Part shown: piece by piece, positions 1 through 8,131 of the stretch
How the letters are laid out: each line of letters begins with the position of its first letter
How positions within the stretch are numbered: the stretch's first letter is position 1
Source of the DNA: a virus
Virus genome (UHGV): UHGV-0096894
Direction: 5' to 3' (one strand)
Length of the DNA stretch: 18,917 nt
Translations under genes and position numbers: made by a program
The notes under the pieces: generated by a model
Told to the model about the DNA's origin: nothing
What the model saw: only the letters and a program-made list of their open reading frames with translations
The model's database searches: none

Positions 1-357
1 CGCAGCCATCAATGGGACAACAACAGCCTTAACTGCATAGTCCGTTGCGACAATGGTATAAGTTAGTTCTGCCGTCATGGGGTCAAATTTACTTGGTTTC
101 AGCAGAATCGCGATATCGGTGAGAATTTGTTTTACCGGCATAGCAAGTTCTTTGGCACGTAGTGTGGGAACCATACCGTGACTGGTGCGAACAAAGAGAG
201 GATCGCAAAAATAATCACGTAATCGAATAAGCATGCCACTGACAGCGGGCTGCGTCAGGGAGAGTCGCTGTGCAGCCCGAGTCACGCTTCCCTCATCCAT
301 TAACGCATCAAAGGTCTTAAGTAAGTTAAGGTCGAGGGTTTTGATATCATTTTTCAT
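1..357 (-). CDS. LysR-family transcriptional regulator, N-terminal part only (gene continues beyond window start)
   Basis: Reverse complement of 1-357 translates from an ATG (rc of 355-357) as MKNDIKTLDLNLLKTFDALMDEGSVTRAAQRLSLTQPAVSGMLIRLRDYF..., the canonical LysR N-terminal winged-HTH signature. AGGTGA Shine-Dalgarno about 8 nt upstream on the minus strand. No stop codon before the window edge. Not in the ORF track because it is truncated. Confidence 0.85.
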   Translation of the reverse strand, partial: MKNDIKTLDLNLLKTFDALMDEGSVTRAAQRLSLTQPAVSGMLIRLRDYFCDPLFVRTSHGMVPTLRAKELAMPVKQILTDIAILLKPSKFDPMTAELTYTIVATDYAVKAVVVPLMAA

Positions 358-689
358 AATGAAGTCACCTGACAGATATAAAAATGTTGATTGAGGCTAA
401 TTGCCCCGATGAGGATTGTCGAGGGGAGACAGGAGTTTTTTCTTTTGGGTGATCTCCATTGCTGGATAGTTCCCTTTTACAGATAAGTCCGTTCTTCGCA
501 CAAAGCGGACTGGAAGGTTAGCTTGAGTCGGACTTTGCGTATTAAAAGAAGTGCTGGTGGTGACTGGTTCTTGAGTCCCATTTCCCCAGAAAAAAATCAG
601 AGAAACTATACCCAATAGTTGTATTGATTCACTGACGAGACAGCCTCATATTGATCGGGACTGGTGTGCATCCAATACAGGAGGTTGTT

Positions 690-779
690 GTGCTGGTTCT
701 CAAATGTGCGCTGGCTATTGCGGCTGTAATGGCAATTTATTGTCTTGCTGTTGTTCTTATGGATCGCCTTTCTGATTGA
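690..779 (+). CDS. Small hydrophobic ORF (29 aa), candidate membrane peptide
   Basis: Near-consensus SD AGGAGG at 679-684, 5 nt before GTG at 690. Translation VLVLKCALAIAAVMAIYCLAVVLMDRLSD then TGA at 777-779: one hydrophobic helix with a charged tail. Sits divergent from the LysR gene. Coding status rests only on the RBS and composition. Confidence 0.3.
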   Translation: MLVLKCALAIAAVMAIYCLAVVLMDRLSD

Positions 780-990
780 TTTCATATTGGCGAGGTAACG
801 GTAGTTAAGTAGAATGCCTGCGGGTGCTTGAGGCTATCTGCCTCGGGCATGAACACCAAAGGCAGATAGAGAAAAGCCCCAGTTAACATTACGCGTCCTG
901 CAAGACGCTTAACATTAATCTGAGGCCATATCTATGCCATACACACGTAGGTTAGCCTCTTACGCGCCGAAAGGCAAGGAGAAGCAGGCT

Positions 991-1146
991 ATGAAGCAGC
1001 AAAAGGTGATGTTAATCGCCCTGATCGTCATCTGTTTAACCGTCATAGTGACGACACTGGTAACGAGGAAAGACCTCTGCGAGGTACGAATCCGAACCGG
1101 CCAGACGGAGGTCGCTGTCTTCACAGCTTACGAACCTGAGGAGTAA
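991..1146 (+). CDS. hokD: Hok/Gef-family type I toxin (51 aa)
   Basis: ATG at 991 preceded by aaggcaaggagaag RBS. Product MKQQKVMLIALIVICLTVIVTTLVTRKDLCEVRIRTGQTEVAVFTAYEPEE has the Hok layout (N-terminal TM helix, conserved Cys, short polar tail) and closely matches my recollection of E. coli HokD/RelF. The track ORF starts at 934, but that in-frame extension has no RBS and is probably leader. Confidence 0.75.
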   Translation: MKQQKVMLIALIVICLTVIVTTLVTRKDLCEVRIRTGQTEVAVFTAYEPEE

Positions 1147-1215
1147 GAGACCCGGCGAGGGAGAAATCCCCCGCCACCTCTGATGTGGCAGGCATCCTCA
1201 ACGCACCCGCACTTA

Positions 1216-1238
1216 ACCCGCTTCGGCGGTTTTTTTTA
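1216..1238 (+). terminator. Rho-independent terminator after hok
   Basis: GC stem ccgc(1218-1221)/gcgg(1226-1229) closed by a TTCG tetraloop, followed directly by an 8-T run (1230-1237). Confidence 0.6.
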
Positions 1239-1377: not shown

Positions 1378-1731
1378 ATGGCACTCACTGAATTCGGTAA
1401 GGCCGTGAGAAAAGCGAGAATTGATACAGGTTATACACTTCTTACCATGGCAAAAGCATTGGGCACCACACCAGCTTTCTTGAGTGGGCTTGAAACCGGA
1501 GCAAAAAAGATTCCAGCAAAATGGGTTACAGCAATAAACGATTTACTTGCTGAGCAAGGGTACAAAATTGAAAACTTGGATTTGTTAGCCAATATTTCAA
1601 ATGAGTCAATTCCTGTTGAAGGTTTACCCTTGCAGCAACAGATGTTGGTTGCAGGATTTGCTAAATCAGAATTCACACATGAAGAATTGAAAAAGTTCGC
1701 TGAGCTTTTAGCGGAAATCAATAAGAAATAA
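1378..1731 (+). CDS. XRE-family helix-turn-helix transcriptional regulator (117 aa)
   Basis: GAGGA RBS 8 nt upstream of ATG at 1378. N-terminal segment GYTLLTMAKALGTTPAFLSGLETG fits the HTH_3/XRE motif (helix, turn, helix ending in ...E.G). Followed 16 nt later by the peptidase gene. Confidence 0.8.
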   Translation: MALTEFGKAVRKARIDTGYTLLTMAKALGTTPAFLSGLETGAKKIPAKWVTAINDLLAEQGYKIENLDLLANISNESIPVEGLPLQQQMLVAGFAKSEFTHEELKKFAELLAEINKK

Positions 1732-1747: not shown

Positions 1748-2230
1748 ATGTATCAAATGCGAGGGACAAGAGTCCAGCCATTAACCGAAATTGACATCAA
1801 AAACAAAGCTATAAATGCCTGTTTTGCTTTGGGATTTACAAGTAAATATAAATACCGTAGGCGTCCGAAGAGATTTGATATTGCTTTAGAAAAGTTGTCA
1901 GAGTGGAATATTGTTTTGGAGCCTATTGATGAGGCTGATTGGCTGGGACTTACTCTTGGCTTAACCATTGGACATTGTGAACCAGAGACATTGACAATAA
2001 GAGTGCCAAATCATATTTATGAAATGGCTTGCGCAGGAGAACGTAGTGCTTTATTTGTTGTTTTTCATGAGTTAGGTCATTTGCTTCTTCAGCATAAACC
2101 AGCACTGCATTTTTCAAATACCCCACCGGAGCAAAACGAAGACTCTGAGTGGCAGGCTGATTTATTTGCAGATGTGATGTTGGAAAAATTAGGATATGAA
2201 ACAGCACAACTTTGCTTCGATTTTTATTAA
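1748..2230 (+). CDS. ImmA/IrrE-type (COG2856-like) zinc metallopeptidase (160 aa)
   Basis: Contains FVVFHELGHLLLQH, i.e. an HEXXH zinc-binding motif in the context typical of ImmA/IrrE peptidases. Immediately downstream of, and co-oriented with, the XRE HTH gene. Confidence 0.75.
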   Translation: MYQMRGTRVQPLTEIDIKNKAINACFALGFTSKYKYRRRPKRFDIALEKLSEWNIVLEPIDEADWLGLTLGLTIGHCEPETLTIRVPNHIYEMACAGERSALFVVFHELGHLLLQHKPALHFSNTPPEQNEDSEWQADLFADVMLEKLGYETAQLCFDFY

Positions 2231-7977: not shown

Positions 7978-8053
<76 letters not shown>

Positions 8054-8056
8054 TAT

Positions 8057-8131
<75 letters not shown>

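Follow-up and report, generated by a model that had tools for sequence, protein, structure and literature searches.

[quoted passage not shown] The R1 mRNA is activated by 3' processing, and the duplex formed between Sok and the mRNA is cleaved by RNase III. Closer to the locus described here is the hokW-mokW-sokW system of phage 933W and prophage Sp5 (AF125520; Takada et al. 2021, PMC8621323), in which mok and hok are in frame, sok lies on the opposite strand, and the toxin has about 44% protein identity to R1 Hok. Experiments on Sp5 hokW-sokW demonstrated that the expressed HokW peptide is toxic and depolarizes the membrane and that sokW functions as an antitoxin, with partial dependence on RNase III and Hfq. 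When Sp5 was treated with mitomycin C, sokW RNA was lost and membrane HokW appeared, in a RecA-dependent manner, and hokW-sokW raised phage release twofold (PMC8621323). Two other forms are relevant. One is the Qin-type relBE-hokD (relF) arrangement, represented here by locus L095 of E. coli ECDA1023; the other comprises the hokC (gef)-like loci of the Escherichia chromosome (for example L102-L109), which belong to the same family. According to a summary given in a preprint (bioRxiv 10.1101/2025.08.07.668861), chromosomal hok loci reportedly do not mediate post-segregational killing, which makes the biological role uncertain.

The window analyzed here, a stretch of 18,917 nucleotides from the viral genome UHGV-0096894, covers early-right and late regions of a lambdoid prophage, with genes for a DUF968 protein, RusA, antiterminator Q, tRNAs, holins, terminase and portal. 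We are confident that the hok/mok/sok type I toxin-antitoxin cassette at positions 803-1237 of this window, in the early-right (nin) region, is complete and belongs to the hokW/hokD lineage. The system is already known: this is an ordinary copy of a kind common in E. coli lambdoid prophages, and its mechanism is not new. From 803 to 1218 the DNA is collinear with phage 933W at 92.5% identity, and transfer of the 933W annotation places sokW, mokW and hokW at 872-942 (minus strand), 934-1146 and 991-1146, respectively. The ends of the cassette, at about 803 and 1237, are sharp, and the span between them is conserved in more than 100 loci. Like the 933W/Sp5 locus, that of the window lies in a lambdoid prophage. 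The 933W locus is, however, elsewhere in the genome and has no counterpart of the small upstream open reading frame (mini-ORF) module considered below. The coordinates of all features are collected in Table 1.

Table 1. Features of the hok cassette and of the DNA upstream of it (positions are those of the window)
Feature	Position	Strand	Description
LysR gene, partial	1-357	-	Pfam HTH_1
Separable module with mini-ORF	486-794	+	about 310 bp: the ORF plus about 200 nt of conserved upstream sequence
Mini-ORF	690-779	+	29 codons, GTG start; SD AGGAGG at 679-684, 5 nt before the start
hok mRNA promoter, candidate	787-815	+	TTGGCG (787-792), 17-nt spacer, TAGAAT (810-815); 9/12 in consensus scan
Full-length hok mRNA, predicted	822-1237	+	about 415 nt, from +1 to the T-run of the terminator; both ends predicted
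tac, 5'-end element	822-833	+	GGGUGCUUGAGG; pairs with 1196-1208 in the minimum free energy (MFE) structure
5' hairpin	823-880	+	houses the 9-bp inverted repeat; first helix of the Rfam model
Sok-like antisense RNA, predicted	872-942	-	about 70 nt; 5' single-stranded tail, long stem-loop, then UUUUCUCU; ends predicted
mok	934-1146	+	70 codons, ATG, in frame with hok, shared stop; SD GAGG at 922-925
sok promoter, predicted	949-977	-	TTGCCT (977-972), 17-nt spacer, TAACCT (954-949)
hok	991-1146	+	51-aa membrane toxin; SD AAGGAG at 976-981; Pfam HOK_GEF (PF01848)
UACG at Tyr47	1129-1132	+	reported A-to-I editing position (Tyr to Cys)
fbi (fold-back inhibition) box	1196-1208	+	CCUCAACGCACCC; complementary to the 5' end; C1202 bulged
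Intrinsic terminator	1218-1237	+	CCGC (1218-1221), UUCG (1222-1225), GCGG (1226-1229), U8 (1230-1237)

That hok itself had been called correctly in the original prediction, which was made from the sequence without database searches, is clear from the match of its product to Pfam HOK_GEF (82.8 bits against a cut-off of 22, E = 1.2e-23, profile positions 2-42 of 42) and to PHROG 251, 'MokW-like host killing' (1.7e-31). The protein keeps the N-terminal transmembrane helix and the TRK-x-LCE motif of the family. Substitutions that might inactivate the toxin, a possibility raised with the prediction, were sought by alignment with HokW, HokD, HokC and R1 Hok; none was found, and all 18 invariant columns are retained. 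The HokC and R1 Hok sequences in this alignment are those that we take to be the standard ones, so that this part of the comparison should be read as a lead and not as the outcome of a database search. The window toxin is nearly identical to HokD of locus L095, 49 of the 51 residues being the same; the two differences (A6V and A22T) are conservative and fall at positions where HokW, HokC and R1 Hok also show variation, R1 Hok presumably having T at the second of them. From HokW it differs at 6 of 51 residues (V6A, T22A, T45V, A46D, P49S, E51K). RefSeq gives window-type genes the name 'HokD'. Since HokW is toxic and membrane-depolarizing and is 88% identical to the window protein (PMC8621323), the latter would by analogy have the same activities. 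A-to-I recoding of Tyr to Cys has been claimed for the hokC, hokD and hokE mRNAs in a single source (bioRxiv 10.1101/2025.08.07.668861), and the UACG in question is present in the window gene.

The original prediction found no obvious mok frame beside hok. Inspection revealed one of 70 amino acids that overlaps hok in the same frame and is preceded by a GAGG Shine-Dalgarno (SD) sequence, a layout identical to the mokW/hokW annotation of phage 933W. Its ATG and the AGGC of its SD sequence are invariant or nearly so in an alignment of 51 loci. This alignment, which was used for all the covariation analyses below, is made up of non-identical relatives from Escherichia, Kluyvera, Pseudocitrobacter and Erwinia and from viral contigs.

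A structured leader had also been predicted for hok, and it is borne out by a match to Rfam family RF01794 at 822-996 on the plus strand that spans the entire model (positions 1-157 of 157) with 112.1 bits and E = 3e-25, the gathering score being 59. Because the match ends at the hok AUG, this model, although named 'sok', describes the leader of the hok mRNA, to which Sok is antisense; and because it lies on the strand of the leader, the match supports the leader and not the antisense RNA itself. The promoter candidate for this mRNA puts +1 at about 822, which is where the Rfam match starts. Its -35 hexamer is not in the conserved cassette, since in many related loci homology begins only at about 803. 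The RNA from 822 to 1232 folds with an MFE of -160.5 kcal/mol (z = -6.8). Together with the E-value of the Rfam match, this far exceeds what chance would give.

In the predicted structure the 5' end of the mRNA is paired with its 3' region through tac and fbi. RNAalifold, applied to the 51 loci, recovered the same helix of 11 pairs, which is present in essentially all the sequences; in five Kluyvera loci one of its GC pairs has become AU through a double change, and others have G-U intermediates. The tac sequence itself is nearly invariant, and overall 17 of the 75 predicted pairs show compensatory changes. The perfect 9-bp inverted repeat noticed at the outset (CTATCTGCC at 834-842 and GGCAGATAG at 861-869) is present and turns out to be the core of a 21-nt dyad (823-843/860-880) that forms the 5' hairpin, for which compensatory changes are seen at alignment pairs 19:51 and 25:45. 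In the computed fold of RNA 822-1190, which is shorter by about 40 nt at the 3' end, the 5' end is fully refolded into this hairpin. The computed fold-back and refolding agree with the folding pathway of R1 hok mRNA, and the refolding of the shortened RNA supports a model in which the window mRNA would be activated by 3' processing. Because 811-821, which precede the assumed +1, are complementary to 1188-1198, the actual 5' end may lie a few bases away.

At the 3' end, the UUCG terminator of the original prediction was confirmed, with a 4-bp GC stem, a UUCG loop and a run of eight T residues. It was not listed by the terminator scan because the stem is shorter than the 5-bp minimum. The cassette boundary on this side is at about 1235-1237; the 933W sequence diverges from 1218 on and differs 3' of this point, so that its terminator is a different one. 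An isrK-like match in the hok 3' untranslated region (1155-1236) scored 22 bits where the gathering score is 50, and was judged sub-threshold.

A Sok-like antisense RNA was expected from the dyads in the leader, and homology to sokW predicts one on the minus strand; its coordinates are carried over from the sokW misc_RNA feature of 933W. The candidate (minus strand of 868-945) folds with -30.2 kcal/mol (z = -4.3) and has a U-rich 3' end. As regards its promoter, the consensus scan reported none on the minus strand; that of sok was missed because its -10 hexamer, TAACCT, matches the consensus at only three of six positions. Reading of the sequence nevertheless finds the arrangement TTGCCT-17-TAACCT, both hexamers of which are identical to those of 933W/Sp5. 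It is exactly this -10 element that primer YO-421 replaces in the 'pro-less' sokW construct of Sp5, which is toxic unless sokW is supplied in trans (PMC8621323). Judged from its sequence, then, the cassette appears to encode in cis an antisense Sok that has its own promoter and extends across the mok start.

How such a cassette would work is suggested by the paradigm of R1 hok/sok and by the experiments on Sp5 hokW-sokW. The modest promoter would drive synthesis of a stable mRNA for hok, about 415 nt long, whose 5' end (822-833) would be locked to fbi (1196-1208), so that the full-length RNA is neither translated nor able to bind Sok. Slow trimming from the 3' end would take off fbi and let the 5' end refold into the 823-880 hairpin, exposing the mok ribosome-binding site and the Sok target. 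For as long as it is synthesized, the unstable Sok RNA (about 942 to 872, minus strand) would pair over the mok start and block translation of mok, and hence also that of the coupled hok, and the duplex would be cleaved. Once Sok transcription stops, whether on prophage induction or through DNA loss or damage, mok and hok would be translated, and the 51-aa Hok would enter the inner membrane and depolarize or lyse the cell. The role proposed for the window cassette, as a prophage system, is in phage release, in place of the plasmid maintenance of R1.

How does the window form relate to the relBE-linked hokD with which it was originally compared? The prediction that neither relB nor relE precedes hok in the window is right, a partial LysR gene and the mini-ORF being found there instead. 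The comparison had, however, taken a truncated form as its reference. Homology between the window and the relB-relE-hokD locus L095 begins only at 977, and the hokD copies at L079, L091, L137 and L144 likewise share homology only from 977 or 978. The relBE-hokD form therefore lacks tac and the mok start along with the hok promoter and all of the Sok RNA; in it relE abuts the hok SD sequence, whereas the window has the complete cassette. The relBE-hokD form is a truncated derivative cut at 977, and the window form the complete ancestral cassette. The annotation should be corrected to match: the window hok is not an orphan but belongs to a complete cassette of the hokW/hokD type, and relBE-hokD is the truncated exception.

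With plasmid R1 the window shares the mok-hok overlap, the antisense Sok over the mok start, the fold-back and the 5' hairpin, which are the features scored by RF01794. In the hokC-like loci, tac, fbi and the SD regions of mok and hok are conserved, but these loci have only about 74% DNA identity to the window, encode a 50-aa Hok and lie in the core chromosome. A further difference is in the stem that holds the Sok target, which in the window has an extra GC-rich hairpin (about 892-907) relative to both the Rfam consensus and the hokC-like loci. This hairpin measures 16 nt by the Rfam alignment and corresponds to a gap of 18-21 nt at 888-908 in the multiple alignment.

The original prediction took hok to be an orphan, and one could still suppose that it is an orphaned or decayed gene that, like relBE-linked hokD, has no functional antitoxin or mok and is silent or controlled in some other way. 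The lack of relBE and the weak -10 hexamer of sok might be read in this way, and truncated hokD copies do exist, as noted above. But mok, tac, fbi, the hok promoter and both the promoter and the RNA of sok are all present in the window and conserved, and the locus is collinear with hokW-sokW, whose activity has been shown by experiment, so that a decayed locus is highly improbable. For the window cassette, the analysis establishes each of the sequence elements and their conservation, as well as the pairing of the two mRNA ends; by analogy with hokW-sokW, this copy would be expressed and would behave in the same way. The mini-ORF is not part of the hok cassette. It belongs to a module of its own, the left edge of which falls at 485-497 in 97 of 118 tallied loci (and at 475-502 in 105) and the right edge at about 794. 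Seven viral contigs have the module without hok, followed by unrelated sequence, and hok occurs without the module in 933W and in most other hok loci. One idea might be that the mini-ORF is coupled to hok, for instance as a leader whose transcription or translation runs into the hok promoter region and modulates it: it ends (stop codon at 777-779) 8 nt short of the hok -35 hexamer, and exactly 132 nt separate its GTG from the start of the hok mRNA in 106 of the 107 contigs that carry both. The independence of the two modules goes against this, however, and the fixed spacing is what shared descent of the joined pair would produce; we consider such coupling improbable. A possible promoter of the module (TTGATT at 624-629, 17 nt, CATATT at 647-652) was spotted by eye only.

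The mini-ORF is present as predicted, with its GTG start and near-perfect SD sequence, and its product is predicted to be a single hydrophobic helix with a 23-residue core between K5 and D25 and a charged DRLSD tail. Whether it is a gene at all needs to be weighed, because the frame could have arisen by chance in conserved non-coding DNA, for example at a regulatory or recombination boundary. None of 30 RefSeq genomes sampled has an annotation at this position. All 144 copies found in viral and genomic contigs (30 nucleotide haplotypes) are open and 143 have exactly 29 codons, although the sequences compared are closely related and intactness by itself is therefore weak evidence; moreover the opposite strand is also open (606-785) in most variants. 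This minus-strand frame is, however, interrupted in 4 of 19 variants, and the pattern of change in the mini-ORF itself is that of a coding sequence. Among the 30 haplotypes, 15 changes are synonymous (over 22 sites) and 17 non-synonymous (over 62 sites), giving a dN/dS of about 0.4, which is only moderately low, and an excess of synonymous changes with a binomial P of 0.009. Variation peaks at third-codon positions, the replacements are conservative (A/T/V, V/I, M/T, R/H, D/E/N), and the ORF is less variable than either flank. In addition, two lineages whose upstream homology ends at about 664-678 still keep a GGAG-type SD sequence and the GTG. On balance a chance frame is a possibility to be kept in mind but the less likely one, and the mini-ORF is rather likely to be a real small gene; it is probably an independent neighbor of hok that encodes a single-pass membrane peptide. 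A terminator-like site within it (714-733) was taken as chance, one such site being found where 0.9 were expected.

What might such a peptide do? The original prediction allowed that it could be a membrane-depolarizing toxin, which would add a new type I toxin to the locus beside hok, with an RNA antitoxin of its own within 486-794. The size and hydrophobicity of the peptide, the strong SD sequence, the signs of purifying selection and the self-contained mobile module of about 310 bp with some 200 nt conserved upstream would all suit a toxin, as would its prophage location, which is shared by many type I toxins. None of the following tests supports it. For a partner RNA we searched the minus strand, in which the scan found no promoter-like site, and Rfam, in which no family scored above noise; these, like the minus-strand fold given below, are weak tests. 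The only Rfam hit for the region was a sub-threshold minus-strand 'sok' echo at 725-880 (21.8 bits), which arises because the 5' hairpin of the hok leader is nearly palindromic. Nor is there a sign of structure that would hide the ribosome-binding site: the RNA of 487-800 folds no better than shuffled sequences (z = -0.48, with 28 of 100 shuffles folding as well; z = +0.15 for the minus strand), compared with z = -6.8 for hok, and a freely accessible consensus SD sequence would be unusual where a toxin must stay silent. Searches of Pfam, NCBIfam, PHROG and PADLOC gave no family match. Protein database entries found with a 42-aa, TTG-extended form of the ORF as query are all from Escherichia and are named only 'hypothetical' or 'putative membrane protein', and the peptide string does not occur in the searchable literature. 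With neither an antisense promoter nor a fold nor a family behind it, the idea of a toxin is speculation, and we think it unlikely. We hold the same opinion of the broader proposal that the mini-ORF encodes a new small prophage membrane protein with a defined activity, be it that of a membrane-active toxin or of a modulator of lysis or exclusion. If it did, the mini-ORF, which usually lies directly upstream of hok, would make up a two-peptide membrane-attack unit with it. That said, comparative sequence evidence of the present kind favors a real, selected small gene and is silent on its activity. The mini-ORF is the sole residue of novelty at this locus, and small membrane proteins of prophages are under-explored.

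With regard to the genomic setting, the left end of the window, where the partial LysR gene lies, was considered as a junction between chromosome and prophage. This was rejected since in E. coli A36 LysR and a polyketide cyclase gene form a cargo block inside the prophage, at the same position beside 'hokD'. A match of 342-515 to the 'YkgR' region proved to be intergenic similarity beside another LysR gene and not ykgR. The module that carries the mini-ORF occurs in no fewer than 1676 of the 5426 complete E. coli genomes (about 31%). Of the same genomes, 4767 have a match to positions 600-1300 of the window, a query that takes in the mini-ORF module as well as the hok cassette, and in 1530 the match covers at least 80% of it. 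Among phages, 110 records match 520-1300, and relatives are encoded in 587 of 600 viral candidate stretches.

The ends of the hok transcript are complementary in the window (91% between 811-821, AGAATGCCTGC, and 1188-1198, GCAGGCATCCT), and this complementarity reaches 11 nt 5' of the assumed transcription start. The hok mRNA of this allele may accordingly have its true 5' end not at 822 but a few bases before it. The corresponding complementarity in the Stx2 phage 933W is weaker. The 3' UTR of hok with its terminator (1155-1236) has an Rfam match to isrK, an Hfq-binding sRNA of a Salmonella prophage, but at 22.4 bits (E=0.019) this is below the gathering score of 50, and it is probably noise or the result of a terminator shape in common.

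An extra GC-rich hairpin in the Sok-target stem of the window is missing from the Rfam consensus, the hokC-like chromosomal loci and some viral hok loci (e.g. L038, L059, L068, L102-L109). It appears as a 16-nt insertion in the Rfam alignment and as an 18-21 nt gap in the multiple alignment. Its minus strand would form the tip of the stem-loop predicted for Sok, the candidate antisense RNA.

Features of the window outside the hok, mini-ORF and LysR coding sequences
Feature	Position	Sequence	Context
Hairpin	487-510	GTCCG...CGGAC	start of mini-ORF module
Additional GC-rich hairpin	888-908	CGCGUC-CUGCAA-GACGC	Sok-target stem
Promoter-like site, extended -10	1267-1294	TTTACA-16-TAAATT	5' of HTH/metallopeptidase genes
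HTH regulator gene	1378-1731		directly downstream of hok
M78/ImmA-IrrE-type metallopeptidase gene	1748-2230		downstream of hok, after HTH regulator gene
tRNA-Thr(UGU) and tRNA-Gly(UCC), two phage-borne genes	7978-8131		

On the 5' side, a variable cargo site separates the prophage replication genes (DUF977) from the mini-ORF and hok modules, as a comparison of window 1-486 with four related loci (L001, L002, L003 and L006) reveals. The cargo genes are on the minus strand in every case. The window and E. coli A36 have LysR and a polyketide cyclase; the others are an ATP-dependent nuclease in MB06231, SMEK with a methyltransferase and a hypothetical gene in SY3626, and a hypothetical gene of 450 aa in mEp460. 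The stretch 342-515, which overlaps the left edge of the mini-ORF module (~487-515), has 87% identity to intergenic DNA found at another site in many E. coli chromosomes, where it is flanked by a ykgR pseudogene and by a LysR gene other than that of the window. There is no ykgR-like ORF in the window, and the similarity probably stems from a LysR promoter region in common. In E. coli RM9088 (locus L004, 4643-5856) an IS3-family element is inserted at the equivalent of window ~603-605, i.e. in the upstream region of the mini-ORF module, with LysR on one side and the mini-ORF on the other. The LysR gene of this locus is frameshifted.

On the 3' side, related prophages have rem at the site where the window has the HTH regulator and metallopeptidase genes. 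PADLOC returned weak CapH/CapP-like and RmrA/Lit-like matches for these two genes. One possibility is that they form a regulator pair responding to DNA damage, another that they are a toxin-antitoxin-like pair. Farther downstream, the tRNA genes are flanked by a DNA-methyltransferase-like ORF on one side and the lysis genes on the other; E. coli MB06231 has a related prophage in which this arrangement recurs.
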